DNA of 64,000 nt from Pseudomonadales bacterium (GTDB lineage: Bacteria > Pseudomonadota > Gammaproteobacteria > Pseudomonadales > Azotimanducaceae). The DNA is taken from positions 3,976,330-4,040,329 of the forward strand of contig OZ220680.1 in NCBI GenBank assembly GCA_965116345.1, given 5' to 3'. The notes under the pieces were generated by a model. It ran no database searches, was not told the origin of the DNA, and worked only from the letters and a program-made list of their open reading frames with translations. This document shows, one piece after another, positions 4,564 to 64,000 of this stretch (the stretch's first letter is position 1; each line of letters opens with the position of its first letter). The translations under genes and the position numbers were made by a program.

Positions 4564-5229
4564 ATGGATTTCATGGGGTTGTTCGACTATGCCGTGCGTT
4601 GGGGTCACTACCTGTTCGGCATCACCTGGATTGGCCTGCTCTACTACTTCAACTTCGTTCAGGGCGGCTACATGGCGGCGGCGTCGGACGAAGCGAAGGT
4701 CGATGCGTTCACCAAGCTCGTGCCGAAAGCGTTGTGGTGGTTCCGCTGGGGTGCGTTCTTCACGTTCCTGACCGGCCTCTACCTCCTGTACCTCGCCATG
4801 ACCGGACTGTCGGTCGACATTCTCCTCGCGGCCTTGATGGCGACCCTGATGTTCCTCAACGTGTGGGGCATCATCTGGCCGAACCAGAAGATCGTGATCG
4901 CCTCCAACGAGTCGGTTCGCGACGGTGGCGAGGCCGATCCCGCAGCCGCCGGGGCCGCCGCCAAGGCGCTTCTGGCATCGCGCACCAACACCTTCCTGTC
5001 GATGCCGATGCTCTTCCTGATGGGATCCCACGGCCACTTCATGCTGGGTGCCATGGGCGATTCGGGGCTCGGCGGGATGACATCGCTGTGGGTCGGTGTC
5101 GTCATCATCGCCGCCATCGAGGCCAATGCGATCTGGGGCAAGACGATGGTCCTGACCACCGTGCGGGGCGTGATCGTCTCAAGCCTCGTGCTCACCGTCG
5201 TCATGGGCTTGATGGTGGCAAACCTCTAG
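4564..5229 (+). CDS. Polytopic inner-membrane protein of unknown function (weak resemblance to the N-terminal membrane domain of PuuD-like proteins)
   Basis: Several hydrophobic helices; VRWGHYLFGITWIGLLYYFNFVQ motif; strong codon periodicity. The family call is weak. Confidence 0.6.
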   Translation: MDFMGLFDYAVRWGHYLFGITWIGLLYYFNFVQGGYMAAASDEAKVDAFTKLVPKALWWFRWGAFFTFLTGLYLLYLAMTGLSVDILLAALMATLMFLNVWGIIWPNQKIVIASNESVRDGGEADPAAAGAAAKALLASRTNTFLSMPMLFLMGSHGHFMLGAMGDSGLGGMTSLWVGVVIIAAIEANAIWGKTMVLTTVRGVIVSSLVLTVVMGLMVANL

Positions 5230-5256
5230 GGAAGGTCTGAGTAAGACCTTCCCTAG
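5226..5256. repeat. Solo copy of the MITE terminal hairpin CTAGGGAAGGTCT-N5-AGACCTTCCCTAG
   Basis: Perfect 13-bp stem identical to the hairpin at the right end of the elements at 18555-18710 and 24369-24525. Overlaps the TAG stop at 5227-5229. Confidence 0.85.
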
Positions 5257-5393
5257 CGCGGTTGCGCTTCAGGCAACCCGTCACCACACGGGTTGCCTGG
5301 ACGACCTCGAGGTCGCGACCTCCTGAGCGCTAGCGCGAAAGTCCGGCAGGCTGCTAGTCTTTTGCAATCTTTTCTCACACTGGGAGAGTCCTC

Positions 5394-16304: not shown

Positions 16305-17038
16305 CCTCCTCCCGCGACAACGCCATCGTCTTCGAAGGCGTCGGCAAACGGTTCGACGACTGGGTCTTCCGGGGCGTCGATCTCGCCCTGCCGGCACGGG
16401 CCACCAGTGCCATCGTCGGCGAGAGCGGCTGCGGCAAGACCACCCTTCTACAGCTCGTCAACGCCGTTCTGCGACCCGACGAGGGCCGCATCGACGTCCT
16501 CGGCGAGGCCGTGCCCGACGACGGCCTGGTAGCCTTCAGACGGCGAATCGGCTACGCCGTCCAGGGTGCGGGATTGTTCCCACACCTGACCCTCGAGGAG
16601 AACGTCTCGCTGATCGCGCGGTTGCAACGATGGCGCCAGGAGGAGATCGACGCGAGGCGCAGTGAACTGTTCGATCTGGTGGGCCTCGGCCCGGATCTGG
16701 ACCAACGCTACCCCCACCAGTTGTCCGGCGGGCAGCAGCATCGGGCGGGACTGTGCCGGGCGATGATGCTCAAACCCGAGATGCTGCTCCTGGACGAACC
16801 GTTCTCGGCCATCGATCCCATTACCCGCACCGAGATCTACGGCCAGTTCGAGACTCTGCGTGGCCACGAGCCGGTCACCACCGTGCTCGTCACCCACGAC
16901 ATTCGCGAGGCACGCCGTCTGGCGGACTATCTGGTCATCATGGGGGAGGGCTCGGTGGTGCAGGCGGGGCCGACCGATTCGGTGGTGGCGTCGCCCGCCG
17001 ACGGCCTCGTGCGGCGCCTGTTGGAGTCGGCGGAATGA
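16301..17038 (+). CDS. Osmoprotectant (betaine/choline/carnitine-type) ABC transporter ATP-binding protein
   Basis: Walker A GESGCGKTT, signature LSGGQQHR, Walker B LLLDEPFSA. GTG start overlaps the sbcB stop (GTGA). Confidence 0.85.
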   Translation: MTSSRDNAIVFEGVGKRFDDWVFRGVDLALPARATSAIVGESGCGKTTLLQLVNAVLRPDEGRIDVLGEAVPDDGLVAFRRRIGYAVQGAGLFPHLTLEENVSLIARLQRWRQEEIDARRSELFDLVGLGPDLDQRYPHQLSGGQQHRAGLCRAMMLKPEMLLLDEPFSAIDPITRTEIYGQFETLRGHEPVTTVLVTHDIREARRLADYLVIMGEGSVVQAGPTDSVVASPADGLVRRLLESAE

Positions 17039-18543
17039 GCGTGCGCGGCTTCGTCGTCGCACTGGGGCTGGCCTTCGGAGCGGCGGCTGCGAGCGCTGCG
17101 GATGAGGCCATCGTCGTCGCCAGCAAGAACTTCACCGAGGCCTACATCCTGGGCGAAGCGGTGGCGCAGCTCTTGGAGAGCGAAGGCTTCGAGGTCGACC
17201 GCAAGCTGGGCCTGGGCGGCACCAAGATCTGTTACGACGCACTGGTCGCGGGGGACATCGACGTCTACGTGGAGTACACGGGAACCATCGCGGAGGCCAT
17301 CAAGAACATCGACGGCGAGCCGACCCGCGAACGCCTCGCCGACGTGCTCGCTCCCGACGGTGTCGAGATGCTCGAGACCTTCGGCTTCAACAACACCTAC
17401 GCACTCGCGGTCTCGGAGCAGGTGGCGACGGCACGTGGTCTGACGCGGATTTCCGATCTGGGTTCGTATCCCGCTCTGCGCATGGCCGTGTCCCACGAGT
17501 TTCTCGAACGCGGCGACGGCTGGCCGAGCCTGCAGCGCGCCTACGGCATCGAGGAGGTCCCCGCCGGCATCGAGCATGCGCTCGCCTACCAGGCCATCGC
17601 CGACGGCGCCATCGACCTCACGGACGCCTATTCCACCGATGGCGAATTGAACCGCTATGCGCTGACGGTGCTCGACGACGACCTCGGGTTCTTCCCCGTC
17701 TACCTGGCCGTGCCGCTGGCGCGTTCCGACCTCGATGCCCGCGCCAAGGACGCGTTGCGGCGTGTCGCCGACACGTTGAACGACGCCGAGATGCGGGAGA
17801 TGAACGCGGCGGCGGTTTTGGGCGGCGAGAACACCGTCACGGTGGCCACGGCGTATCTGGTGGACAAGGGAATCGTGGCCGGCGATGGCGCTGCCGATGG
17901 GCCACGGTTTCGCGATTCGCTGACGGGCCGTCTCGCCGCCAACACCACGCGGCACCTGGAACTGGTGCTCCTCGCGCTGTTGCCGGCCAGCGTCCTGGCC
18001 GTGCTGCTCGCGCTCGCCATCTTCAAGTCGCCGGTGCTCTCCCGTGCCGCGGTCTACGTCGCCGGACTGCTGCAGACGGTGCCGTCGATCGCACTCCTGG
18101 CGCTGCTGATTCCGCTTGCCGGGATCGGCGTGTTGCCGGCGGTCGTGGCGTTATTCCTCTACGCGCTGCTGCCGATCCTGCGCAACACGGTCACCGGCTT
18201 GACGTCCATCGAGCCGACACTCCGCCGCGTCGCGGTGGCCATGGGACTCTCACCCGCAGAGGAACTGCGCCACGTCTTCGTGCCGCTGGCCATGCCGAGC
18301 ATCATCGCCGGGGTCCGCACCGCCGCGGTGATCAGCATCGGCACCGCCACGCTCGCCGCCTTCATTGGCGCCGGCGGACTCGGCGATCCCATCGTCAAGG
18401 GACTTGCCTTGAACGATACGCGGCTGATCTTGGAAGGTGCGATCCCGGCTGCCTTGCTGGCGGTCGTCACCGAGCTGGTGTTCGAACAGGTCGAGCGTTG
18501 GTTGGTGCCGGGCCACCTCCGGGCGACGAACGCCGGCGGTTGA
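17034..18543 (+). CDS. Fused osmoprotectant-binding domain + ABC permease
   Basis: Signal peptide, OpuBC/OpuCC-like binding domain (NFTEAYILGE..DVYVEYTGT), then permease TMs (EAA-like loop). ATGA overlap with the ATPase gene. Confidence 0.85.
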
Positions 18544-18554
18544 TCAGACCTTCC

Positions 18555-18710
18555 CTAGGTATCCTCTGATCAAGCCCGTCCATGGGCTTGATCAGGAGAA
18601 AAACAAAAGCGCGGTTTTGTTTTTCTGACAAATTCAGTGGCTTGCGCCACCGAATTTGGCGGCACGTCCTTGTGCCGCGCTAGGGAAGGTCTTAATCAGA
18701 CCTTCCCTAG
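18555..18710 (+). mobile_element. MITE-like element, copy A (156 bp)
   Basis: Ends CTAGGTATCCTCTGATCAAG / CTTAATCAGACCTTCCCTAG form a 15/20 imperfect TIR, with 4-5 internal hairpins. One loop nucleotide differs from copy B. Preceded by an extra half-site ATCAGACCTTCCCTAG at 18543-18558. Confidence 0.8.
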
Positions 18711-19507
18711 GCCGAATCCGCCCCCGAGGACTCGCGCTGGCCGGCGATTCTCGCCTGCATCCGGCGCATGCCGTTCAACCACCGCTCCAGGTCGCTGGTC
18801 TTGCGCGCCATCCACGTCTCGGCGATGGAATCGGTGAGAATCAGGAAGCGCTCCGCGTAGACCGCATCGGAGACCATGCGGGCGACTTCTTCCGGCTCCT
18901 TGACCGGCCCCGCGGCGGTGCTGGCGAATGCCGACGAGCCATCGCCCAGCATGGGTGTTCGCACCCCCAGTGGCGCGAGCAGGGACACCCGGATGCCGTT
19001 GTCGTGGTAGGTGATCGACAGCCATTCGGCGAGCCCGACCACCGCGTGCTTGGTGACCGCGTAGGTCAGGTTGCCGTGACTCGTGAGGATGCCCGCGATG
19101 GACGCCGTGTGCAGCAGGTAGCCGGACTCGCGTTCGAGCATCGAAGGCAGCACCGCGCGCACCGCGTACACGTGGGCCATGACGTTGACCTGCCATTGCT
19201 CGTTCCAGACGTCGATTTCGGTATCGAGGGGTGTTCCGCCGGTGGCGATGCCGGCGTTGGAGAAGAACACGTCCACCGGGCCGTTCGTGCGTTCGGCCTC
19301 GGCCACCAGGGCGTTGACGTCCGCCTCGTTCGCCACATCGCAAACCACCGCGTGTCCGTCGATCTCCCGGGCCACGCGGCGGGCGTCGTCGCCGTTGACG
19401 TCGGCAACCACGACGCGGGCACCCAACCGGGCGAACTCGCGCGCTGATGCCGCGCCGATGCCGCTGGCGCCGCCGGTGATGATGGCGTGCTTGTCCGCCA
19501 GGTCCAT
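18707..19507 (-). CDS. Short-chain dehydrogenase/reductase (SDR)
   Basis: TGGASGIG cofactor motif and YAVTKHAV (YxxxK). ATG 19507 preceded by AAGGAGGG. The stop TAG lies in the MITE terminal CTAG. Confidence 0.9.
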   Translation of the reverse strand: MDLADKHAIITGGASGIGAASAREFARLGARVVVADVNGDDARRVAREIDGHAVVCDVANEADVNALVAEAERTNGPVDVFFSNAGIATGGTPLDTEIDVWNEQWQVNVMAHVYAVRAVLPSMLERESGYLLHTASIAGILTSHGNLTYAVTKHAVVGLAEWLSITYHDNGIRVSLLAPLGVRTPMLGDGSSAFASTAAGPVKEPEEVARMVSDAVYAERFLILTDSIAETWMARKTSDLERWLNGMRRMQARIAGQRESSGADSA

Positions 19508-19627
19508 TGAACTGCCCTCCTTCACAACGCGGGCCGACGCCAGTGGACGCCAGCGGTGCGTTCTTGGCGTTTCCTCGGACGACAGCGTAGCATCCGCCGC
19601 TTGGCATCGTGCGGGGAGGTGGAGAGC

Positions 19628-21769
19628 GTGAAGTCAAGAGTTGCCGCGGCGGTCACGCGGTTGTGGGGAGTCCACGTGCTGTTGTTGGCGACGTCGGTCG
19701 CGTTCGGCTGGCAGTCCGTGGGTGAAGAATCGTCGGTGGAATACGAGGCACCCGAGGCACGTCCTCCCGGCTGGGTGGACGAGGCCCGGCTCGCCGCCGC
19801 AGGCGACGCCGAACCCGGTAGCTGGCTGGCCCATGGGCAGACCTACGAGGAACAGCGCTTCTCGACGCTCACCCAGATCAACCGGGACACGGTGGCCAGG
19901 CTCGGTCTGGCATGGGTTAAGAACCTGGACGTTCCCTTCCGGATGCAGGCGACGCCGCTGGTCATCGACGGCGTGATGTACTTCACCGACCCGTGGAGCG
20001 TGGCCTATGCCGTGGATGCCCGAACGGGCGAGGAGATCTGGCGCTTCGATCCCGAGACCGATCGCGCCTTCATTCGGTACTCGTGCTGCGGCGGTCCGTC
20101 CAACCGCGGTGTCGCGGCGTACAAGGGCCGCATCTACTTCGCGACCTTCGACGCCCGCCTGGTGGCCCTCGACCAGGCGACGGGCGAGAAGGTCTGGGAC
20201 GTCGACACGACCCACTACCCGACCCACACGCCCTACACGATCACCGGCGCGCCCCGGGCCGTGCACGGCAAGGTGATGATCGGCCAGAGCAGTTCCGAGT
20301 TCGGCGTGCGCGGGCATCTGTCGGCCTACGACGCCGACACCGGGGAACTGGCTTGGCGTTTCTTCGTCGTACCGGGTGATCCGTCGCAGCCTTTCGAGCA
20401 TCCCGAACTGGAGGAGGCCGCCAAGACCTGGTCCGGGGAGTGGTGGAAGCTGGGCGGCGGCGGCACCCCGTGGCACGCCATCGTCTACGACGCCAAGTTC
20501 GATCAGCTGATCTTCGGCACCGGCAACGGTGCGCCGTGGCCGCGCAAGATCCGTTCGCCTGGCGGCGGCGACAACCTGTTCCTCGGTGGCGTCCTGTCGG
20601 TGAACCCGAACACCGGGCGCATGAACTGGTTCTACCAGATGACGCCGGGAGACAACTGGGACTTCAATGCCGCCCAGGACATCGCCCTGATGGATCTGGA
20701 AGTGGACGGCGAGATGCGTTCGGTATTGGTGCAGGCGCCGAAAAACGGCTTCTTCTACATGCTCGACCGGGAAGACGGCGAACTCCTCACGGCGGAGCCC
20801 TACATGGACCAGAACTGGGCCACGCACATCGACATGGAGACCGGCCGGCCCGTGGAGCACCCCGACCAGTATGACGAGGAACCGCGCTGGGTCATGCCGG
20901 GTAACTCCGGCGCACATAGTTGGCAGGCGATGGCCGTGGATCCGAATCGCGGCGTAGCCTACGTCCCGGTGCAGGAGATGGCGGCCTTCTACAGGCTGCC
21001 GAAGGCGTTCCTCGAGACCGGCGAGTACGAACTCGACCCCAACAGGATGAGCCTGGGCGTGGAATTCGGACCCCCGGCGGGTGGACCGGAGAAGCCGGAG
21101 GACAAGGGCTACCTGAAGGCGGTCGACGCACGTACGGGGGCGATCCTCTGGAGCGTGCAGCGGAAGACGCCCTACAACGGCGGCACGCTGGCGACAGCCG
21201 GTGGACTCGTCTTCCAGGGCGACGCCACCGGCACGCTGGCGGCCTACGATGCCGACGACGGCTCGACCCTGTGGGAGTACGACACCCAGGGCAGCACGCC
21301 GGCATCGCCGATCAGCTACGAACTCGATGGCGAGCAGTACCTCGCGGTGCTGGTGAGCGGCCAGTGGCAACGCGAGGAGAGCGACGGACGGCTGATGGTG
21401 TTCAAAGTGGGCGCGGAAGGGGACATCACCAAATCCCTCGGCGAAGTCCAGATTCCACAACCGCCGCCGCTCGCGGCGAGCGAGGAGGAAGTGCGCCAGG
21501 GCGAACTGCTCTACAACCGGGTCTGCGTCGGCTGCCACGGGATCGGTGCGGTGGCGACCATGAACGCCGACCTGCGGATGATGACCGCCGAGACCCACGA
21601 GCGCTTCCAGGAGATCGTCCGCGGGGGTGTACTGAGCGACAAGGGCATGCTGTCCTTCGCCGCGGCGGTCACCGCGGAGGAAACGGAACTCATCCGCCAG
21701 TACGTGATTTCGCAGGCCATAAGGGCCGGCGAGGAAGAAGAACCACCGATGCCCCCATCCCGCCGTTAG
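19628..21769 (+). CDS. PQQ-dependent alcohol dehydrogenase, quinohemoprotein type (C-terminal cytochrome c domain)
   Basis: Vicinal-disulfide SCCGG, repeated W-motif propeller, GGGGTPW, C-terminal CVGCHG heme site, signal peptide; GTG 19628 after GGAGGTGGAG. Confidence 0.9.
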   Translation: MKSRVAAAVTRLWGVHVLLLATSVAFGWQSVGEESSVEYEAPEARPPGWVDEARLAAAGDAEPGSWLAHGQTYEEQRFSTLTQINRDTVARLGLAWVKNLDVPFRMQATPLVIDGVMYFTDPWSVAYAVDARTGEEIWRFDPETDRAFIRYSCCGGPSNRGVAAYKGRIYFATFDARLVALDQATGEKVWDVDTTHYPTHTPYTITGAPRAVHGKVMIGQSSSEFGVRGHLSAYDADTGELAWRFFVVPGDPSQPFEHPELEEAAKTWSGEWWKLGGGGTPWHAIVYDAKFDQLIFGTGNGAPWPRKIRSPGGGDNLFLGGVLSVNPNTGRMNWFYQMTPGDNWDFNAAQDIALMDLEVDGEMRSVLVQAPKNGFFYMLDREDGELLTAEPYMDQNWATHIDMETGRPVEHPDQYDEEPRWVMPGNSGAHSWQAMAVDPNRGVAYVPVQEMAAFYRLPKAFLETGEYELDPNRMSLGVEFGPPAGGPEKPEDKGYLKAVDARTGAILWSVQRKTPYNGGTLATAGGLVFQGDATGTLAAYDADDGSTLWEYDTQGSTPASPISYELDGEQYLAVLVSGQWQREESDGRLMVFKVGAEGDITKSLGEVQIPQPPPLAASEEEVRQGELLYNRVCVGCHGIGAVATMNADLRMMTAETHERFQEIVRGGVLSDKGMLSFAAAVTAEETELIRQYVISQAIRAGEEEEPPMPPSRR

Positions 21770-22083
21770 CGAGGCCCGTTTGGGCGGCCGCGTTACCGAA
21801 CGATCTCTTGCCGTCGAGACGATCGATCGCAACGGTCGCCCCCATAAGCGCCAACCAGTTCTGGGTGCGCCGAATACGCGACGTACAGCAACCTACCCCA
21901 GGGAACCTACGGGTTCGACTGGCTCGAAGTTCCTTGGCTACTGGACGTTCAGTCCACTTGATTGGGACTTCAAGATGGCTGATGCCGCTGCGTGTCCAGA
22001 TCAGGCACCGGATTGCGCGTTTTCTATGTCCATAGGTCCGATATCGTGGGGCTTGGGTTGCGGGGGATGACGGCGACCAAAAC

Positions 22084-22308
22084 ATGAGGAAGTTCGGCGC
22101 GTTCCTAGTGTCGGTGGTGCTGGTGTTTCCAGCGGCGGTCTTGGCAATCGCTGGAATAGTCGGCCTGCTAGGATCGCTGGCCGACATTACGATGTCGGCG
22201 AGCATGCAGGTCCTGTTGTCAGGGGCTTGTCTGTTCGTGTCCATCGTGGTGGCGAACATGGCGTACTATTGGATCATCCGACGCATGGATGAGACATCGA
22301 ACGAGTGA
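22084..22308 (+). CDS. Small two-TM membrane protein, unknown function
   Basis: 74 aa with two hydrophobic helices and the charged tail RRMDETSNE; lies in the lower-GC islet. Confidence 0.5.
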   Translation: MRKFGAFLVSVVLVFPAAVLAIAGIVGLLGSLADITMSASMQVLLSGACLFVSIVVANMAYYWIIRRMDETSNE

Positions 22309-22528
22309 GGGACGCACAGTCTGTTGACTCCTGATCGCGGCTTGTACGTGTTCAGAACATCGCTTCGCACGCCAGTTGATGCGTTGTAGGACGGAGACGG
22401 GTACGCATGCGTGTTCCGTCGCGCATACTTGTGCGACGTTGGCACCGGAATGTTGGCGAAGCACCATCGCAACGTGGTCAACGGGATTGATGTTTGCGGG
22501 TGCGGGCAAGGTGGCACGGCTTAGAGCC

Positions 22529-22858
22529 ATGCGGCCTGTTCGGGCCGACTGCAGGGTGACGGACAACGGCACCGTCCTTAGTGCAGGTTCGAGCGCTAAT
22601 GTCCTGATCTATTCGAACAAGAACTGCCCGGCGGGAACCTCAGCGCAACTATGCCGCGAGGCTAGGGCCATCGCGAGGGAGATCCAAGCGGTTTACCAAG
22701 AGGTCAAGGAGGCCGTCGGTCCCAACGACCTTGTTAGGGTCGACTTGTACGACAAGCTACATCCAGGGGGCCCGCCGGACCCCGGCACAGGGGGAGTATC
22801 GCCGCCCTGGCCGGATCGACCTGCGGCGGGGCGCGCCCGCAAGTGCGATTCACCATGA
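22529..22858 (+). pseudogene. Possible N-terminal portion of the HEXXH protein, separated from it by a +1 frame change
   Basis: The ORF overlaps the next ORF by 128 nt in an adjacent frame. G5 runs at 22766-22770 and 22790-22794 are candidate slip sites. Coding status is uncertain. Confidence 0.35.
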
Positions 22859-23333
22859 GATGGGACATGCCTTCTTCAACGATCACATCCAGACTACAGG
22901 GCATCTTCAAGAATGGGGCTCGGAGGAGGGGATTGGTATGATCTTCGAGGAAGCGCTCGGGGCTGCGTCGCGACGCGACCCACGCGCGGCAACGGTCGAG
23001 GGCGTCCTACAAGTATGCTCAGTGGATCTTGACTGCGCCTACGAGTTAGGAAGGCTCGTAGCCAAGCGATACCGCGAGGTGAAAGAGATAAGGAACAAGG
23101 ACTACGCGCTCAAGGTGTACCTAGAGGCGGTGAGGAACGTTGAGGTGGCCGTGACTCCAGACTCGCTCGAAGAACGGGTGAACACCGAGATGGAGAGAAT
23201 TGACGGACGAGAAGACCACGCGGAGGACGATTATGTTAATGAGGACGAAGAGGAACGTGCGAATCGGGAGTTCGATAATTCACCCACTGACACCGGCTTC
23301 TTTGACGATTGGGATGAGAATTGGGAAGAATAG
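22731..23333 (+). CDS. HEXXH zinc-metalloprotease-like protein with a strongly acidic Trp-containing C-terminal tail
   Basis: IHHEMGHAFFNDH motif followed by EEGIGMIFEE (possible third ligand); tail DDYVNEDEEE..FFDDWDENWEE. No family recognised. Confidence 0.55.
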   Translation: MLGSTCTTSYIQGARRTPAQGEYRRPGRIDLRRGAPASAIHHEMGHAFFNDHIQTTGHLQEWGSEEGIGMIFEEALGAASRRDPRAATVEGVLQVCSVDLDCAYELGRLVAKRYREVKEIRNKDYALKVYLEAVRNVEVAVTPDSLEERVNTEMERIDGREDHAEDDYVNEDEEERANREFDNSPTDTGFFDDWDENWEE

Positions 23334-23449
23334 CGGGGCTCGCTCAATTTGGACGAATTCTTGGAGTCTCTAAGCAAGCTCGTCGGGCTCCCTCGCGACG
23401 CCGAAAGCCGAGGACCGCACTACGGCCCATGATAAGGGGCGGGAGGAAA

Positions 23450-24358
23450 ATGCAGGCGGTGATGGCGACGTTGCTGGCGGCGGTCCTGTTTGTCGTGCTG
23501 GCGTACTCGCGCAGTGGTGTGGACACGGGACTTCCCGTGGTCGAAACAGAGCGTGAGCCGGTGTCACCGCGACCCCCGCCGGCCACGCGGGTGGACCTGA
23601 CCGAGCCGGCGACCGGCACGGCGAAGGCCGCCGGGAAGGAATACGCGGCGCCGCCGTGCGACGGATGCCTCAACGAGCCCGAGGTACTGGACGTGGCAGA
23701 GACGTTCGTTTACCACATGCGCCATGAAAAACACATCGGCTTACGGGCCGAGCTTTACTCCGACATCGCCGCTAGCCTCGAGGCTGCGGGGCAGCCCGCT
23801 CCGCACGAGACGCGACTTCCTAAGCTTCCGCAGGGGCTGGTGGACGCTCCGCCGGATCGTTCGATGAGCGGCAGGGTGCTCCCCCTCGTGGATAGGCCAG
23901 CAGAGACCTGGGTTATCTGGGTGCAGGAAGGCTGGTTCGACACCCAGTCCTACATCGATGGCGGCATCCTTCCGCCGATCGCAGCCTCATGGCCACCACT
24001 CAAACATGAGAAGTTCATGCTCATAGATGCTCGCAGCGGTGAAGTGTTCGCGGATGACATTTGGCGTAGTAGACATCGTCGCAGTCTGGGTGCCTACGGA
24101 GATATTGCTGCGCAGGCTGCCGGGAAACGCGCCGAGCACTGGATCGCCAAGAGGTCAGTCCCCTGGCCCGCATTTGTCACCACGCCGCTTGTGCGAACAA
24201 CATATGCTTCGAATATCAGTTGCTTGTGTCGGAATCCCGAGGTGTCGGAATTTGCAGACTGCGCTGGCCGCGAGCGCGCGCTCCAAGGAGCGCGTTCGCA
24301 CGGGGCCAAAATCCTCGAACGCGCCCGCAAGGGCGCGCATCATCGCGGCCCGTGGTGA
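23450..24358 (+). CDS. Membrane-anchored protein, unknown function (weak PepSY-like motif)
   Basis: ATG 23450 after GGGAGG; TM ATLLAAVLFVVLAY; Pro-rich linker; FMLIDARSGEVF resembles the PepSY DAxTGEV signature. Confidence 0.55.
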   Translation: MQAVMATLLAAVLFVVLAYSRSGVDTGLPVVETEREPVSPRPPPATRVDLTEPATGTAKAAGKEYAAPPCDGCLNEPEVLDVAETFVYHMRHEKHIGLRAELYSDIAASLEAAGQPAPHETRLPKLPQGLVDAPPDRSMSGRVLPLVDRPAETWVIWVQEGWFDTQSYIDGGILPPIAASWPPLKHEKFMLIDARSGEVFADDIWRSRHRRSLGAYGDIAAQAAGKRAEHWIAKRSVPWPAFVTTPLVRTTYASNISCLCRNPEVSEFADCAGRERALQGARSHGAKILERARKGAHHRGPW

Positions 24359-24368
24359 GAAATTCGGG

Positions 24369-24525
24369 CTAGGTATCCTCTGATCAAGCCCGTCCATGGG
24401 CTTGATCAGGAGAAAAACAAAAGCGCGGTTTTGTTTTTCTGACAAATTCAGTGGCTTGCGCCACCGAATTTGGCGGCACGTCCTTGTGCCGCGCTAGGGA
24501 AGGTCTTAAATCAGACCTTCCCTAG
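24369..24525 (+). mobile_element. MITE-like element, copy B (157 bp)
   Basis: Identical to 18555-18710 except for one extra A in the terminal hairpin loop; flanked by CTAG on both sides. Confidence 0.85.
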
Positions 24526-25406
24526 CCCGCGAGCGCCCAGGCCATGCCGACGACGGTGATGGTCGTCCAGGCGAAGAAGCGCTGTGCCCTTGGACCCGCG
24601 AGGTGCAGCCTCGTCTTGGCCACCTGGAGGCCGATCAGGAAGCCGGCGATCAAGCCGGTGAGGTGGGCGACGACGTCGGTGTCCTGGCCAGCGGTTCCGG
24701 TGTAGGCGAAGAACGCGAACGCGGCGAACACCGGGGCGAAGCGGTGTTGCCAGCGACCGCGGCGGAAGTAGCCGCTTCGCCACATGAACGCACCGACCAG
24801 GCCCACGGCGGCGAAGGTCGCGGTGGATGCGCCGATGGACATGAAGAACTCCGGTCGCACCAGGACGTTGAGGGCGTTGCCCAGCGTGCCGCCGCCGACG
24901 ATGCACAGCCACGCCAGGCCGGATCCCAGGTAGCGGCCGGCCAGCACCCCGAACAACGCGCCGAACAACGAGTTGGCGACGATGTGGGGCACATCGGCGT
25001 GCAGCGTGAGCGCCGTCACCAGCCGCCAGAACTCGCCCGACATCACCGATGCCACGTGGATCCGGCCGATGGTGTTCCAGTCCCAGCCGAAGAGGTCGGC
25101 TCCTTGGGCGAACATCACCCCCCAGATGACGCCGAGGTAGGCAAGCACGCCCGGCCAGCCACTGTCGATCCGCACCGGCAGCACGGGTGGTGGTTGGGGG
25201 ACATTCTCGCCTTCGTACGCGGCGAGCTCGGCGGCGGCGGCATCGACATCCTCCTGCGCCACGAGCAGTCGCCAGGCACCGGCTTCGTGACCGATGCGGC
25301 TGTCGATGCCCCGGGCGGTCAGGACGAGCTCGAACGTGCGCAGATCCCGTCGTTCGCGTCCGGTGCGCAGGACCAGCCAGTCTTCGTCGTCGGACATGGG
25401 AGTCAT
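24522..25406 (-). CDS. Rhomboid family intramembrane serine protease
   Basis: GASTATF (GxSxxxF) and AHLTGLIAG catalytic motifs, 6-7 TMs, cytoplasmic N-terminal domain. Start ATG 25406 (ORF open to 25601). The stop TAG is inside the MITE terminal CTAG. Confidence 0.85.
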   Translation of the reverse strand: MTPMSDDEDWLVLRTGRERRDLRTFELVLTARGIDSRIGHEAGAWRLLVAQEDVDAAAAELAAYEGENVPQPPPVLPVRIDSGWPGVLAYLGVIWGVMFAQGADLFGWDWNTIGRIHVASVMSGEFWRLVTALTLHADVPHIVANSLFGALFGVLAGRYLGSGLAWLCIVGGGTLGNALNVLVRPEFFMSIGASTATFAAVGLVGAFMWRSGYFRRGRWQHRFAPVFAAFAFFAYTGTAGQDTDVVAHLTGLIAGFLIGLQVAKTRLHLAGPRAQRFFAWTTITVVGMAWALAG

Positions 25407-25472
25407 GTTGGCACGGCCAGCGGGTCTTGATCGAGTAACATCGAGGGTTGGCAATCGCAAAGCGAAATCTGC

Positions 25473-27131
25473 ATGAACAGCGTTGAGTACGTCGCCCGGA
25501 TCCTCAAGGACGAGGGCGTCACCTGGATGTCCTGCTATCCGTCCAACCCACTCATTGAAGCGGTGGCGCGGGAGGGGATCCGTCCGGTCGCCTTCCGCCA
25601 CGAGCGTGGGGCCGTGATGGCCGCGGATGGGTTCTCGCGGCTATCCGACCGCCGGCGCTTCGGGGTCGTCGCGGTGCAGTCCCAGGCCGGTGCCGAGAAC
25701 TCTCTCGGCGGTCTTGCCCAGGCGAATGCGGACAACGTCCCGATCCTCGCATTGCCCGGTGGCAATCCCCTCGACATGCTCTTCGTCCGGCCCAACTTCT
25801 TCGCCGCCACGACCTGGGCGCCGGTGTTGAAGCGCGCCGAAGTCATCACCCGGCCCGACCAGACCGGCAACGTCATGCGCCGGGCCTTCCACGCGCTGCG
25901 GTCCGGACGCCCGGGGCCGGTGCTGGTGGAAATGCCGGGCGACGTGTGTGCGCAGCCGATTCCGGAGAACGCGCCGGGATATTCATCGCCGACCCCCGCG
26001 CTGTATGGGCCGTCGGCCGGCGCCGTCGCGGATGCCGCGAAGAAGCTCGTCGAGGCGCGCGAACCCCTGATCTGGGCTGGTGCCGGGGTGATGACCGCCG
26101 GGGCGACCGGCGAACTGCGTGCCCTGGCCGAGCTGCTCGATGTTCCCGTCTACACCTCGATGCCGGGCAAGTCGGCCTTCGACGAACGTCATCCCCTGTC
26201 GGTCGGTGCCGGCGGCAGCACGGTCGCCGGTCCCGCGCGGCAGTGGCTCGATGATTGCGACGTGCTGTTCGCGGTCGGTACCTCGCTGACCGCGACACCC
26301 TACGGCCAGCGTTTTTCGCGCGGCAAGTTCCTCATTCACTCGGTGATCGCGGACGACGAGATCAACAAGGACACAGCGGCCGACATCGGTCTCGTGGGCG
26401 ACGCCAAGCTGACCTTGGAAGCGCTCCTCGATGCGGTCAGGGGACTGATCGGCGAGACCGGACGCGACACTGGCGTGCGGGCGCGGGTCAAGGCCGCGCG
26501 GGACGCCTGGCTCGCCGCGTGGCAGCCGTATCTGACCACCGACGACGGGCCGTTGTCGCCCTACCGGGTCATCCACGAGATGAACCGCGTGCTCGACAGC
26601 GAGACCAGCGTCGTAACCCACGACGCCGGCGCGCCGCGCGACCAGATCTTGCCGTTCTACACGGCCACCACACCGCACAGCTACGTGGGCTGGGGCAAGA
26701 CCACGCATCTCGGCTTCTCCATCCCGCTGATGATCGGTGCCAAGATGGCGGCACCGGAGCGCATGTGCGTCAACCTCATGGGGGACGGGGCCTTCGGCAT
26801 GTCCGGTCTCGACATCGAGACCTCGGCCCGGGCCGGGATCCCGATCACCACGATCGTGCTCAACAACGGCGTGATGGCGACGTACCCGGGCGGATTTCCG
26901 ACCGCGCGGGAGAAGTACGGGGTATCCCACATGCAGGGCGACTATGCGGATCTCGCCAAGGCCATGGGCGCCGAGGGGATTCATGTGGCCGAGGCTGCCG
27001 AGATGGGTCCCGCGCTGGAACAGGCGAAACGCCTGAACGCCGACGGCAAAACGGTGCTCATCGACGTCAAGACGCGAGCCGAGGACTCCCGGTCGCCGGC
27101 ACGATTCGCCAAGAGACCAGATGGTGAGTAA
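25473..27131 (+). CDS. Thiamine diphosphate-dependent enzyme (acetolactate synthase / 2-hydroxyacyl-CoA lyase superfamily)
   Basis: 552 aa; ThDP motif GDGAFGMSG...NNGVM; N-terminal Pyr-domain pattern. Subfamily not assignable by eye. Confidence 0.85.
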   Translation: MNSVEYVARILKDEGVTWMSCYPSNPLIEAVAREGIRPVAFRHERGAVMAADGFSRLSDRRRFGVVAVQSQAGAENSLGGLAQANADNVPILALPGGNPLDMLFVRPNFFAATTWAPVLKRAEVITRPDQTGNVMRRAFHALRSGRPGPVLVEMPGDVCAQPIPENAPGYSSPTPALYGPSAGAVADAAKKLVEAREPLIWAGAGVMTAGATGELRALAELLDVPVYTSMPGKSAFDERHPLSVGAGGSTVAGPARQWLDDCDVLFAVGTSLTATPYGQRFSRGKFLIHSVIADDEINKDTAADIGLVGDAKLTLEALLDAVRGLIGETGRDTGVRARVKAARDAWLAAWQPYLTTDDGPLSPYRVIHEMNRVLDSETSVVTHDAGAPRDQILPFYTATTPHSYVGWGKTTHLGFSIPLMIGAKMAAPERMCVNLMGDGAFGMSGLDIETSARAGIPITTIVLNNGVMATYPGGFPTAREKYGVSHMQGDYADLAKAMGAEGIHVAEAAEMGPALEQAKRLNADGKTVLIDVKTRAEDSRSPARFAKRPDGE

Positions 27132-28278
27132 CAGGCAGGAACCGTTCGCGGAGCGGGTGGTCAAGTTCGACCGCCCGGTGCGTTCCCACGCGCTGCTGCT
27201 CGACGCGCACGGGGCTTTCCTGGGTGTCGGCACGAACGGTGAGTTGGAAGCGTTCGACATCGCCGACGACCGGGTAATCTGGGACCGTGGGGACGGCGAC
27301 GTGAGGCATGTGGCGACGGGGCGCAGATTGCCTGTTGCCGAGGGTTTCGTCACCGCCATGGGCGAGCGCTTCGCCCTGTCGCACGGCCCGGAGAAACTGC
27401 CCTCCGAGTACCTGGAGACCATGGAAGCCAACGGGTGGGTGTGCCTGACCAGCCTCCTCGCGCCCGAGGTGGCCGATGGTCTTCGACGGGTGGCCTGCAC
27501 GGACGAATACGCCGACCGGCCGCGGGACACGTCGCGCGGGGCCATCTGCCAGGACATCGCGGTGGCACGCGCGGCCGCCGAACCGGTTTCGCTTTGGCTG
27601 ATCCGCGAGTACATGCGCACCGCCGACATCTGCATGGCGCATGCCCCCGCCCTCGCGGTGCTTGGCAGGGACGACGGCAAACGCCGGGTACAGGGCTGGC
27701 ATTCGGACTACCCGTACCACTGGGGCGTGCCGGCCCCGGGACAGGTGCCGATACAACCCGGGGCGACCCGGCTCGGCGTGCAGCGCAACGTCTGCGTGTC
27801 GGATTTCACCAAGGTGGGCGGCGCCACGGTCTTCAAGCTGGGCTCACATGCCAGGAACCAGGGGCCCCCCGACGAGTGGGGTACGGCGGCGCTCCACGCC
27901 CGGGCCGACTACCGTGCCCGATACGGACTGCCCTACAACGGCCCGGATGCCGACATCATCGAGGCGCCGGGCGGCAGCATCATCCTGTACGACGCGCGCA
28001 CCTGGCACCGCGCCGGCATCAATCGCACGGACAATCGGCGCGCCGCGATGCTCCAGGCCATGGTGCCGATGTACGTCATGCCCAAGGTGGACATGGGCGC
28101 GGCCTACAAGCAGTTCGCCGCGAGCGACGTCTACGCCGAGATCACGCAACGCGAGCGCCGTGAACTCGAGGCCCTACTGGTCCGCCGGCTTCCCGGTCCG
28201 CCCCTCCACGGTGCGCTCGCCACGGATCGGGAACTGGCCGCCCTCGTGAAGCGGGACGCGGCTCCCGGCGGCTACTAA
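27121..28278 (+). CDS. PhyH-family Fe(II)/2-oxoglutarate dioxygenase with ~90 aa N-terminal extension
   Basis: WHSDYPY (HxD) and ARTWHRAGINRT (distal His, Arg). 11-nt overlap with the ThDP enzyme gene. Confidence 0.8.
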   Translation: MVSNRQEPFAERVVKFDRPVRSHALLLDAHGAFLGVGTNGELEAFDIADDRVIWDRGDGDVRHVATGRRLPVAEGFVTAMGERFALSHGPEKLPSEYLETMEANGWVCLTSLLAPEVADGLRRVACTDEYADRPRDTSRGAICQDIAVARAAAEPVSLWLIREYMRTADICMAHAPALAVLGRDDGKRRVQGWHSDYPYHWGVPAPGQVPIQPGATRLGVQRNVCVSDFTKVGGATVFKLGSHARNQGPPDEWGTAALHARADYRARYGLPYNGPDADIIEAPGGSIILYDARTWHRAGINRTDNRRAAMLQAMVPMYVMPKVDMGAAYKQFAASDVYAEITQRERRELEALLVRRLPGPPLHGALATDRELAALVKRDAAPGGY

Positions 28279-28392
28279 GAATGCTCTGATCAAGCCATCC
28301 CTGGCTTGATCAGAAACGCAAAAGCAAAGAGCGCGTCCCCAGCAGTCGCTTCTGACTGATTGGCGCGAAGCCACCGGTCTCAGACCAACCGG
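28275..28392 (+). mobile_element. MITE-like element, diverged/partly decayed copy C
   Basis: Left end CTAAGAATGCTCTGATCAAG matches the copy A TIR 17/20, and the TGATCAAGCC..GGCTTGATCA hairpin is conserved. The right end is reduced to GGTCTCAGACC. Overlaps stop codons of both flanking genes. Confidence 0.6.
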
Positions 28393-29885
28393 CGCCGTTC
28401 GTTGGATGGTGGGATCCCCAGCGACTCGCGGTACTTGGCCACGGTTCGTCGGGCCACCTGGATGCTGCGTTCCTTGAGCAGGGCGGCGATGCGGTTGTCC
28501 GACAGGGGCTTGCGCGGATTCTCCTCGGCGGTGAGTTTGCGGATCAGCGCGCGGATCGCGGTGCTGGATACTTCGCCGCCGTTGACGGTGCCGACGTGAC
28601 TGGAGAAGAAGTACTTCAACTCGAACACGCCCTGTGGCGTCGCCATGTACTTTCGGGTCGTGACGCGAGAGATCGTGGATTCGTGGCGGTCGACGGCGGT
28701 CGCGATGTCGGCGAGCACAAGCGGCTGCATGGCCTCCTCGCCGCGCTCGAGAAAGCCGACCTGGCGTTCGACGATCTTTGCGGCGACCTTGAGAAGGGTT
28801 TCGTTCCGGTAGTCGAGGTTCTTCAGGAACCACTTGGCGTCCTGCAGGTTGTTCTTCAGGTACTGGTTCTCGGCACTCGGGTCGGCGCGCCGGATGAGGC
28901 CCGCATAGCCTTCGTTGATTCGTATCCGGGGTGCGGCATCCTGGTTCAATTCCACGGTCCAACGGCCGTTGCGCTTGGTAACCAGGACGTCCGGTTCGAC
29001 GTACTCGATGCCACGGTCGCCGATGCCGGCGCCGGGACGTGGATTGAGCGAACGGACCAGCGTCATGACCTCGACCAGTTGCTCTTCGCCCAGCCGCGCG
29101 CGTCGAGCCAGGGCGACGAAATCCCGGCTGGCGAGCAATGGGAAGTGGTCGCGCACCAGGCGGATGGCCTCGGCCCGCCAGGGGGTGTCCTCGGCAAGCT
29201 GCTCGAGCTGTAGGCGGAGGCACTCGGCCAAGTCTCGCGCGCCGATCCCGGGCGGTTCGAAGGACTGCACCAACTTCACCACGGCCTCCATCTCGTCGGT
29301 GCCGTAGTCGAGGGTGGAATCCATGTCTTCGACGAGTTCCTCGACGGTGGCCGAGAGCATGCCGTCGTCGTCGATGTTGCCGATGATGGTCATCGCGGCC
29401 AACCGGTCGCGGTCGGACAGGCGCGTCAGTTCGAGTTGCCACAGCAGGTGGTCCTGCAGGGTGTCGGTGGCGCCGTTGCGCTCTTCGAATCCGTCGTCGC
29501 CGTCCGCGGCGGACACCCGGGTCGCCGTGGTGGGCTGATAGACATCGTCCCAGGAGACGTCGACGGGCAGATCCTCGGGAATCTCCTCCATGGTCTCCGG
29601 TCCCTCGGCGGGCTCGTCCAACTCGGCGTCGAGATCAGCGGTGTCCAGGTCGCCGCCGTCGTCGACGTTGTCGGCCTCGGTGATTTCCGGAGGCTCGTCG
29701 TCCTCGGCGAGGGCGTCCGTGTCGTCGTCCTCGGAGAGGTCCAGCATGGGATTCGACTCGATGGTCTGCTGGATCTCGGCCTTGAGTTCCAACGCCGAGA
29801 GCTGCATGAGACGGATTGCCTGCTGCAGCTGCGGCGTCATGGCGAGTTGCTGGCCCAGCCGCAGCGACAGCGATTGCTTCATCAC
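28380..29885 (-). CDS. rpoN: RNA polymerase sigma-54 factor
   Basis: [29 protein letters not shown] start and a C-terminal RpoN box [10 protein letters not shown]. Confidence 0.97.
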
Positions 29886-30628
29886 AGTTCGAACATCTCG
29901 CCGAGATAGACCCGTCTTACCGTCTCGTTGGATAGTATGGCTTCGGGACTGCCTTCGGCAATCAAGTGCCCCTCGTTGACGATGTAGGCGCGGTCGCAGA
30001 TGTCGAGGGTTTCGCGGACGTTGTGGTCGGTGATGAGAACGCCGATCCCGCGGCCGGCAAGGCTCCTGATCTCGTTCTTGAGATCGTTCACCGAGATGGG
30101 ATCGACACCGGCGAAGGGTTCGTCGAGGAGCATGAACCCGGGTTCGCCGGTGAGTGCCCGGGCTATCTCGACCCGGCGCCGCTCACCGCCCGACAGCTGT
30201 TCGCCCATGCTGTCGCGGATGCCCTCCAGGCGAAAGTCACGGAGCAGGGCGGCGACCAGCTCGTGGCGCGCGCCGCGATTCAGGTGGCGGCGCAGTTCGG
30301 CGACGGCGAGCAGGTTGTTCTCGACGCTGAGCTTGCGGAACACGCTCGCTTCCTGGGGCAGGTAGCCGAGCCCGGCACGGGCACGTTCATGCATGGGGCG
30401 GCCGCTCAAGTCCGTAGCGTCGATCCGCACACTCCCCGCATCGGCCCGGATCAGTCCGAGAATCATGTAGAAGCAGGTCGTCTTGCCGGCGCCGTTGGGA
30501 CCCAAAAGCCCGACGACTTCGCCGCTTTGGACGCTCAGATTGACGTCTTCGACGACGTTGCGTCCGCGGTAGCCCTTGGTCAGGCCGGCGACGGCTAGGG
30601 TGGCCGGTCGTGCGGTGGCGCCGGCCAC
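29882..30628 (-). CDS. lptB: LPS export ABC transporter ATP-binding protein
   Basis: [33 protein letters not shown]; sits between lptA and rpoN. GTG 30628 chosen as start. Confidence 0.93.
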
Positions 30629-30630
30629 GA

Positions 30631-31167
30631 TCAGTCGGAATCGGTGGTCGGTGGCAGAACGGCGCGGCAGCCGGCACCGCATTCGACGCGGTCGTCCTTG
30701 AGGTGGTAGACGATCACGCCGCCCTCGAACTCGCCATCGCCCTTGGCCAGGAACGCCTCGCCGCGCAACTCGATCCGGTCATCGGCCAGGCGGTAGTCGA
30801 TGGTCTGTGCGCGGGCGTCGACGAACGGTTCGTCCGTCCGAACCTGTTGACGAAGCCGTGCCGGCTCGTCCGGATCGCCCTTGGCCACGGCCCTGGCGAG
30901 CTTGCCGTCCCGGTTCGTGAGCGTCAGCGCGTTCGCGGCGATGCGCAACGTACCCTGTTCGACCACCACCGATCCGGAGAGCTCGGTGACCCCGTTCGGG
31001 TTCAAGTCGGCAGTACCCTTGAGGGCCACAATGGACACGGGTTGATCGGCGTCTTCGGGCAAAGCCGAGACCGGTCCGGCGACGAACGCGAGCAACAGGC
31101 CGACGCGACGCCATGCAACGAGGGCGGGTCGGTCAGGGAGAGCCGTTGTGCTGGTGCGGTTCAACAA
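30631..31167 (-). CDS. lptA: LPS transport periplasmic protein LptA (OstA-like)
   Basis: Signal peptide, OstA-like beta-jellyroll pattern, position between lptC and lptB. TTG start uncertain. Confidence 0.85.
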
Positions 31168-63857: not shown

Positions 63858-64000
63858 CTAGGGAAGGTCTGATTAAGACCTTCCCTAGCGCGGCACAGGG
63901 ATGTGCCGCCAGATTCAAGGGCGCAAGGAGTTGAATTTGCACGCAAAAAAAAGACCGCGCTCTTGTTTTTGCGTTTCTGATCAAGCCAAGGACGGCTTGA
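63858..64000 (-). mobile_element. MITE-like element, diverged copy D, opposite orientation, truncated by the window end
   Basis: Starts with CTAGGGAAGGTCT-gatta-AGACCTTCCCTAGCGCGGCAC. The internal A/T-rich hairpin and TGATCAAGCC..GGCTTGA hairpin are conserved in reverse order. Confidence 0.75.

Follow-up and report, generated by a model that had tools for sequence, protein, structure and literature searches.

Probable separate insertions of an IS5-derived MITE in an inherited gene block beside rpoN

The tract between an OpuAC-permease gene and rpoN in the window analysed here (a 64,000-nt stretch of the 4.33-Mb genome G000) is interrupted by two full-length copies and one fragment of a MITE, and we consider it probable, at roughly 0.85, that these three inserted separately and recently into an inherited gene order, making them transposon litter and not the borders of a mobile cassette. 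Under this reading, the block that runs from OpuAC through the SDR, PQQ-ADH, rhomboid, ThDP and PhyH genes to rpoN would have been vertically inherited within this subclade of the genus, while the MITEs would neither have brought in the genes between them nor mobilise those genes as a unit. An earlier note on this DNA had taken the tract as accessory and likened it to a MITE-flanked composite cassette; comparison of the orthologous rpoN region in relatives, the check that the note itself proposed, found the gene order kept without the repeats and only one islet to be accessory, which speaks against that view. Genes enclosed by repeats need not form a cassette, and relatives can reveal instead a block passed on vertically into which elements have recently inserted; existing knowledge of MITEs and of the rpoN locus is unchanged by the result.

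The gene calls made earlier for the tract agree with Pfam. A fused OpuAC substrate-binding domain and ABC permease (16753-18543, + strand) forms the left border and is followed by a short-chain dehydrogenase (SDR; 18707-19525, -), a PQQ alcohol dehydrogenase with a C-terminal cytochrome c domain (PQQ-ADH; 19556-21769, +), a rhomboid-family protein (24522-25601, -), a ThDP-dependent enzyme (25473-27131, +), a PhyH-family dioxygenase (27121-28278, +) and rpoN, the gene for sigma-54 (28380-29885, -). MITE copy 1 (18555-18710, +; 156 nt counting both CTAG target duplications) belongs to a young subfamily and lies in the spacer between the convergent OpuAC-permease and SDR genes. The SDR gene takes its stop codon (18707-18709) from the right-hand CTAG of this copy, as the rhomboid gene takes its own (24522-24524) from the right-hand CTAG of copy 2 (24369-24525, +; 157 nt). 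The near-identity of these two copies over 156 bp, as first described, is borne out: a repeat search of the window gave 141 nt at 100% identity, the sole difference is one extra A inserted in a loop of copy 2 (TTAATC vs TTAAATC), and the two have a private G variant in common. The ability of two 157-nt direct repeats to recombine is general to any such pair. Three copies in the same orientation had been claimed, and the first two are real and both on the + strand, but the third is only a left-end fragment (28275-28335, +; profile positions 1-60, E 4e-13; about 50-60 nt), which holds CTAA, the left terminal inverted repeat (TIR) and the first hairpin and has neither a right end nor a second target duplication. 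The PhyH stop codon (28276-28278) falls inside the CTAA of this fragment, and the sequence beyond it (28336-28392) is non-MITE, with 28380-28392 being the 3' end of rpoN.

An nhmmer search of the 4.33-Mb genome for the family gave 52 matches over the full length of the element and about 60 partial ones, a copy number far above chance. The element is about 149 nt without its target duplications, is non-coding and consists throughout of five consecutive hairpins; its imperfect 16-nt TIRs (left, GAATGCTCTGATCAAG; right, the reverse complement of GGAAGGTCTGATTAAG) agree with each other at 12 of 16 positions, and its ends are sharply bounded in the 52 copies. The flank table shows a 4-bp target duplication, with CTAG..CTAG as the rule and the left and right tetranucleotides covarying in the exceptions (CTAA..CTAA, n = 6; CTAT..CTAT, n = 1). 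In G000, CTAG is five-fold depleted, with about 9% of its occurrences associated with the MITE. Both the left hairpin and the right palindrome also turn up many times on their own; a solo right-end palindrome of the type CTAG-GGAAGGTCT..AGACCTTCC-CTAG lies at 5224-5261 of the window (strand unassigned), and a full-length copy from an older subfamily runs off the window end at 63858-64000 (-) and has about 83% identity with copy 1. Six of the 32 genomes in the genus set carry the family (G000, G001, G033, G036, G016 and G004). In the closest relative, the sister species G001 (assembly 3.1 Mb, 81% complete), orthologous sites are empty for at least five copies of G000 (at genome positions 700890, 1969338, 2537696, 3507384 and 286711), as seen by flank-by-flank local alignment, MAFFT pairwise alignment having opened no MITE-sized gap there. 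The site of copy 700890 is a clean single CTAG in G001, and the four others each show one diverged tetranucleotide (CTGG, CTGG, CTCA and TTGA). The tract's left-end fragment is likewise absent from G001, relative to which it is a 49-nt insertion. The identification of the repeats as MITEs is thus confirmed by their TIRs, 4-bp duplications, dispersed copies, empty sites in relatives and an end that matches an IS5-family element. The family exemplifies, with clearly defined ends, MITEs that derive from IS5, target CTAG and fold into five hairpins; its host is an uncultured, high-GC genus of Pseudomonadales, and the family is usable as a marker of recent divergence in the clade. It also explains contig breaks in related MAGs and matters for annotation, as it makes false ORF extensions and supplies stop codons.

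The matching end comes from contig C171 of the sister species, which encodes an IS5-family transposase (NF033581: 323.8 bits, cut-off 140; positions 1-284 of the 285 in the profile) that also has the DUF772 N-terminal domain. Before this transposase gene stands TTAG and then GGAAGGTCTGATTAAG, a 16/16 match to the right TIR of the MITE, and beyond this 16-nt end the two elements have no interior similarity. The terminal repeat of the MITE begins GGAAGGT, as that of IS5 of E. coli presumably does as well. The MITE is a non-autonomous IS5-family element, which inserts at the rare CTAG (or CTAA) and duplicates it; from the shared end we infer that it is mobilised in trans by that IS5 transposase. 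Such a transposase, supplied in trans, would have moved the MITEs, and the two full copies and the fragment would each thereby have entered a different spacer between convergent genes, on or beside a stop codon. Against this explanation, TIR pattern scans found no IS-sized pair of MITE TIRs in G000, and hence no autonomous partner with these ends, so that the elements may not be mobile there at present, and the IS copy in G001 is apparently without a recognisable right end. DUF772 was not found in G000, and the DUF772 element of G033 lacks ends that match the MITE. A seven-copy, 1323-bp DDE_Tnp_1 IS of G000 was considered as the partner and rejected, its ends being different (CACTAGTGTCCCAA) and its target duplication 9 bp.

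Gene order in the relatives bears directly on whether the tract consists of MITE-cargo-MITE composite transposons, with the MITE copies as the borders of what was acquired or can move. The order OpuAC-permease, SDR, PQQ-ADH, rhomboid, ThDP enzyme, (PhyH) and rpoN is kept in G033 (contigs C29 and C64), G036 (contig C84), G007 and G016, the last three with other indels, while the G005 locus keeps SDR-rhomboid-ThDP-rpoN with only a decayed PQQ-ADH remnant; none of the five has a MITE at the tract sites. Specifically, a single contig of G033 carries OpuAC, 44 nt, SDR, PQQ-ADH, 178 nt, rhomboid and ThDP at 83-86% nucleotide identity, its sites 1 and 2 being short empty spacers with neither MITE nor islet and with a single CTAG at site 1, and copy 2 is missing from the PQQ-ADH/rhomboid spacer in G036, G007 and G016 as well. 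The two 99%-identical direct copies around 5.66 kb, together with the foreign DNA of the islet inside segment 1 (the stretch between copies 1 and 2), are what a composite cassette would have in its favour; against it stand the same cargo genes in the same order and place in relatives that lack these MITEs, and the right border of segment 2 (the stretch between copy 2 and the fragment), which is a 60-nt piece lacking a right end. Segment 1, for its part, is bounded by two complete elements. No MITE-bounded unit was found at a second location in G000 or in the relatives' loci examined. In addition, a copy at genome position 1529955, 2.5 Mb away, has exactly the sequence of copy 1, so that copy 2 is no nearer a relative of copy 1 than this distant one is; this points to independent insertions and not to a duplicated boundary. 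The target duplications themselves are uninformative as to separate insertion or movement as a unit because all four ends of copies 1 and 2 carry CTAG. Taken together, we regard composite cassettes as highly improbable, and copies 1 and 2 appear, on their sequences, to be recent independent insertions from one master lineage. The distance of 5.8 kb between the two young copies does not amount to significant clustering (P = 0.12 with the 10 young copies, P = 0.07 with all 52).

With 156 nt of near-identity in direct orientation, copies 1 and 2 could undergo homologous recombination, and this might be active, such that segment 1 is deleted or circularised in the population and its apparent absence from the sister species reflects this flux. 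Indeed, G001 has no 90%-level match to segment 1 (queried as 18725-24150), although both flanks are present at 93-96% identity, and its contigs end at both MITE sites. Segment-1 presence or absence may therefore differ between these close relatives, but the G001 assembly is only 81% complete (3.1 Mb vs 4.33 Mb), and the sequence next to its rhomboid stop codon is non-MITE, so that G001 is not a simple one-MITE recombinant; the rhomboid C-terminus is the same in both genomes despite the MITE at the stop codon in G000. Nor was the OpuAC/one-MITE/rhomboid junction found in JGI metagenome contigs, where the rhomboid flank alone was missing too. Since that flank was missing, the exact ThDP protein had no record elsewhere and the best ThDP homologues were at most 90% identical, no same-species material was reached, and we consider active recombination unlikely. 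The structure of the element invites a further reading, namely domestication, in which the unit of five hairpins persists because it terminates transcription in both directions or stabilises mRNA where two genes converge, and not as selfish DNA alone. The predicted RNA fold is strong (-88 kcal/mol, z = -11.9) and recurs in 45 of 51 full copies, though the subfamilies differ in hairpins 2 and 3, and the three tract insertions all lie between convergent genes, at stop codons. Yet the CTAG target accounts for this placement (a long open frame adjoins 26% of MITE ends, vs 15% of other CTAG sites), no Rfam family was found in a scan of 17000-31000 (E <= 1), and a terminator scan flagged only the hairpin of the fragment, with shuffled sequence giving hits at least as often. 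Aligned together, the copies match poorly in hairpins 2-3 and likewise show almost no double compensatory changes, and domestication seems to us quite improbable. To a combination of the two, with copies 1 and 2 as an active deletion or excision hotspot, segment 1 polymorphic in the species and the hairpins perhaps kept for terminating or stabilising convergent transcripts, we would give only a small chance. Separate, recent insertion into a resident gene block remains the reading that we prefer.

Set beside known systems, the tract resembles composite transposons (IS-cargo-IS, e.g. of Tn5/Tn10 type, or MITE-bounded cassettes) in having like elements around several genes, but differs in that the genes are resident and syntenic in element-free relatives, occupy no second location and have a mere fragment as one boundary. 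With IS5 (IS5 group, IS5 family) and its derived MITEs the element has the 4-bp CTAG/CTAA duplication in common, CTAG being the usual IS5 target duplication (PMC10379815). It has the same end as the IS5-family (NF033581) element of the sister genome and departs from IS5 itself in its lack of a transposase gene, its length, its 12/16 TIRs and its five-hairpin interior. BrickBuilt, MITE293 and MITE700 of Porphyromonas gingivalis and the Neisseria ATR are similarly non-autonomous, tied to IS5-family partners via their TIRs, intergenic, present in tens of copies and predicted to have strong secondary structure (PMC4596501). In all these respects they are like the present family, which is nevertheless unrelated in sequence to the BrickBuilt group, resides in another host phylum and has no internal minisatellite; its target duplication is uniformly CTAG, whereas that of BrickBuilt is variable or absent. 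BIMEs/REPs, ERIC and pneumococcal BOX elements consist of palindromic modules that occur alone or combined, in intergenic positions and often at gene ends, and the MITE is also modular, intergenic and often at gene ends. It differs from REP-type elements, whose movement is ascribed to RAYT transposases, in its TIRs, its target duplication and the matching end of an IS5 partner, none of which REP-type elements are known to have.

The only accessory or imported DNA in the tract is the 2.4-kb islet (21770-24160, +), whose lower GC content, noted from the outset, is 54-61% against 65-70% around it and which is absent from G033, G036, G007 and G016. It contains two overlapping genes (22731-23333 and 23321 to about 24165) that have no match in Pfam or NCBIfam, and the pair recurs elsewhere in unrelated defence-island or mobile contexts. 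Between the islet and copy 2 lies a second dispersed repeat (24161-24372, +), unrelated to the MITE and present in about 15-20 copies in G000 and also in G001 and G033; it adjoins copy 2, whose left CTAG is common to both. Directly left of copy 1, an 11-nt TCAGACCTTCC (18544-18554, +) is the same as the MITE right terminus, and G033 carries CTGCGCGAG in its place. These 11 nt probably remain from the end of an older element, which would make copy 1 a nested insertion.

The tract does occupy the place where hpf and ptsN normally follow rpoN, as the earlier note observed. Neither gene is found downstream of rpoN; both lie 50 kb away on the opposite strand, at genome positions 3954242-3955075. 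A 50-kb inversion alone, starting from the canonical arrangement of rpoN and hpf, was rejected as a full explanation, because in G013 and G017, genus members with that arrangement, the ThDP orthologue is 0.6-1 Mb from rpoN. The break between rpoN and hpf is common to several members of the genus and is therefore older than the MITEs.

The two full MITE copies and the MITE fragment between the OpuAC-permease gene and rpoN probably inserted recently and independently of one another into an inherited block of genes; the reading of this tract as a MITE-flanked composite cassette, put forward in the earlier note, is not supported, as relatives that lack the repeats keep this order of genes. Pfam bears out the gene content described there: OpuAC plus permease (16753-18543), an SDR (18707-19525, minus strand), a PQQ dehydrogenase with a cytochrome c domain (PQQ-ADH, 19556-21769), a rhomboid protease (24522-25601, minus), a ThDP enzyme (25473-27131), PhyH (27121-28278) and sigma-54 (rpoN, 28380-29885, minus). 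The ThDP open reading frame exceeds its 546-aa homologues by six codons, and its true start is thus probably downstream; this protein is very widespread, with >1800 matches at E < 1e-200.

We searched the rpoN neighbourhoods of 20 relatives with the window proteins, and made a second search, with the DNA of the tract, in the relatives that carry the MITE. The MITE was absent from all 20 rpoN loci. In G033 (83-86% nucleotide identity), a single contig carries OpuAC, 44 nt, SDR, PQQ-ADH, 178 nt, rhomboid and ThDP, with PhyH and rpoN on the next contig; this genome has no MITE at either insertion place and lacks the islet described below, and in its OpuAC-SDR spacer a CTAG lies nine bases past the stop codon. 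In G036 the same order occurs on one contig, with unrelated inserts and a MITE of its own after the ThDP gene; it is also seen in G016, where 224 nt separate PQQ-ADH from rhomboid, and in G007 (OpuAC, SDR, 6 kb, PQQ-ADH, 86 nt, rhomboid, ThDP, rpoN). G005 retains SDR, rhomboid, ThDP and rpoN, and a decayed, truncated PQQ-ADH remnant (locus L002, 1270-2340) lies between SDR and rhomboid; the dehydrogenase thus belonged to the ancestral block, and G005 has lost it. Blocks of 6-9 kb separate SDR from PQQ-ADH in three relatives (G007 locus L007, 3070-8976; G036 contig C84, 43458-52308; G016 contig C22, 2413-11470) and are missing from G033 and from the window's own genome, G000; the spacers of the tract are thus indel-prone independently of the MITEs. 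The G007 block includes a mandelate racemase/enolase-superfamily gene. The G036 element is a full-length family copy between the ThDP and PhyH genes (C84, locus L113, 12528-12674), a site that is empty in the window, where the two genes overlap.

The break between rpoN and its usual neighbours is likewise real but old, and has no link to the MITEs. The tract does occupy the place where, as the earlier note had it, hpf and ptsN usually follow rpoN: here the two genes lie together on the plus strand at genome positions 3954242-3955075, outside the window and 22 kb upstream of its first base, 50 kb from rpoN and on the opposite strand to it. Of 80 named gammaproteobacterial loci, 74 have the canonical rpoN-hpf-ptsN arrangement, as do other families of the order and, within the genus, G013, G014 and G017. 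The layout seen here, with hpf tens of kb off on the opposite strand, is common to G007 and G033; G009 has the same rpoN-hpf spacing, but its ThDP gene does not adjoin rpoN. Among other members of the genus the link is broken in at least four different ways (G008, G015, G010, G011 and G003). One 50-kb inversion from the canonical arrangement does not account for the break as a whole.

The three same-orientation copies previously described reduce to two. A perfect direct repeat of 141 nt (18555-18695 and 24369-24509) marks copy 1 (18555-18710) and copy 2 (24369-24525), which read as full-length elements on the same strand and are, as claimed, virtually identical, differing solely by one extra A in a loop. 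The third (28275-28392) is only a fragment: its match to the family profile is limited to profile positions 1-60 (28275-28335, E 4e-13), corresponding to a 49-nt insertion relative to the sister genome G001, and the remainder is unrelated sequence, of which 28380-28392 is the rpoN 3′ end. The 11 nt that separate the OpuAC stop codon from copy 1 (18544-18554, TCAGACCTTCC) are identical to the MITE right terminus, which points to a nested insertion beside the end of an earlier element. Family fragments also adjoin MITE copies elsewhere (e.g. genome positions 202102, 3692139 and 3531098).

Could the near-identity of copies 1 and 2 reflect a locally duplicated boundary? Copy 1 is identical to the copy at genome position 1529955, and both share a private G variant with copy 2, so that copies 1 and 2 would instead be products of one recent burst. 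Two of the 10 young copies lie within 5.9 kb of each other (P = 0.12), and all 52 full copies form seven such pairs against 3.6 expected (P = 0.07). Recombination between the copies would be expected to leave one MITE in place of segment 1 (SDR, PQQ-ADH and islet). In G001 there is no match to 18725-24150 at the 90% level; its assembly is only 81% complete, so the missing segment may be an assembly gap. The G001 OpuAC contig ends 18 nt short of the copy 1 position, and the rhomboid contig ends 33 nt past the stop codon in non-MITE sequence, for which reason a simple one-MITE recombinant was rejected. JGI metagenome contigs lacked the OpuAC/one-MITE/rhomboid junction pattern, and also the rhomboid flank itself; no same-species protein is on record.

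By profile search, the family comprises 52 full-length and ~60 partial copies in the 4.33-Mb, single-contig genome, of which the window spans positions 3976330-4040329, and it was found in just six of 32 genomes of the genus. Full copies fall into an older subfamily (~80-84% identity to copy 1) and a young one (10 members, 91-100%), and partial copies mostly consist of one end only, either the left hairpin module (profile 1 to ~60) or the right-end palindrome (profile ~120-157). Whether taken as RNA or as DNA, the element is predicted to form five hairpins in a row (-88 kcal/mol for the RNA, z = -11.9), and 45 of 51 full copies retain five; an Rfam scan returned nothing resembling it. An alignment of all copies together with flanking sequence gave sharp ends, CTAG-G at the start and CTAG at the end, and a left CTAA pairs with a right CTAA (six cases) and CTAT with CTAT (one case), a pattern that marks a 4-bp target duplication. 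Within the duplication lie terminal repeats, GAATGCTCTGATCAAG on the left and the reverse complement of GGAAGGTCTGATTAAG on the right, matching at 12 of 16 positions.

When the joined flanks of 18 copies were searched against G001, the closest relative (~93% nucleotide identity), and then aligned flank by flank, G001 aligned straight across the junction at several sites. It has a clean single CTAG at the site of copy 700890 and one diverged tetranucleotide at those of 2537696, 3507384, 286711 and 1969338 (CTGG, CTGG, CTCA and TTGA); at site 520020 the MITE is present in both genomes. No IS with MITE ends, and no DUF772-type IS5 transposase, was found in G000. On G001 contig C171, TTAG is followed by GGAAGGTCTGATTAAG, identical to the MITE right terminal repeat at 16 of 16 positions, and then by a transposase matching NCBIfam NF033581 (IS5 family) over the full profile length (324 bits, cut-off 140). 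Given this end match, and as the reported IS5 target duplication is CTAG (PMC10379815), the element is best assigned as an IS5-family MITE, by the same route of shared terminal repeats as other IS5-linked MITEs (PMC4596501). A 1323-bp DDE_Tnp_1 IS with seven near-identical copies (genome 162-163, 269-271, 368-370, 2521-2522, 2588-2590, 3790-3791 and 4091-4093 kb) is unrelated to the MITE and was ruled out as partner, since its ends differ (CACTAGTGTCCCAA type) and its target duplications are 9 bp long.

The description of the whole tract as accessory holds in part: judged from the comparison of relatives, accessory DNA appears confined to 21770-24160, which is missing from G033, G036, G007 and G016, and the remainder occurs in the same order in relatives. 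The GC profile confirms the lower-GC islet, at 54-61% between ~21800 and 23400 against 65-70% around it. Two overlapping genes within it (22731-23333 and 23321 to ~24165; ~200-214 aa and ~240-255 aa) are also found as a pair in other assemblies, where their neighbours are PIN/RHH toxin-antitoxin genes, SNF2 helicases, PLD nucleases and transposases, company typical of variable islands. The last ORF (23321-24358) has 14 homologues of 230-276 aa without a Pfam domain; homology stops at 24165, and the rest, ~64 codons past the homologues' end, crosses a second dispersed repeat family of ~210 nt (24161-24372), unrelated to the MITE. This family has ~15-20 copies in G000 and many also in G001 and G033; here it adjoins copy 2 and ends on the CTAG which that copy used.

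CTAG is five-fold under-represented in G000 (2622 observed, ~13600 expected from base composition; ratio 0.19), and 226 of these sites (~9%) fall within or at matches to the MITE family. CTAG contains TAG on either strand, so SDR and rhomboid take their stop codons from the duplications, and PhyH takes its own from the CTAA of the fragment; compared with G001, the C-terminus of the rhomboid protein has not changed. Genome-wide, 26% of MITE ends close an open frame of 200 codons or more, versus 15% of other CTAG sites.
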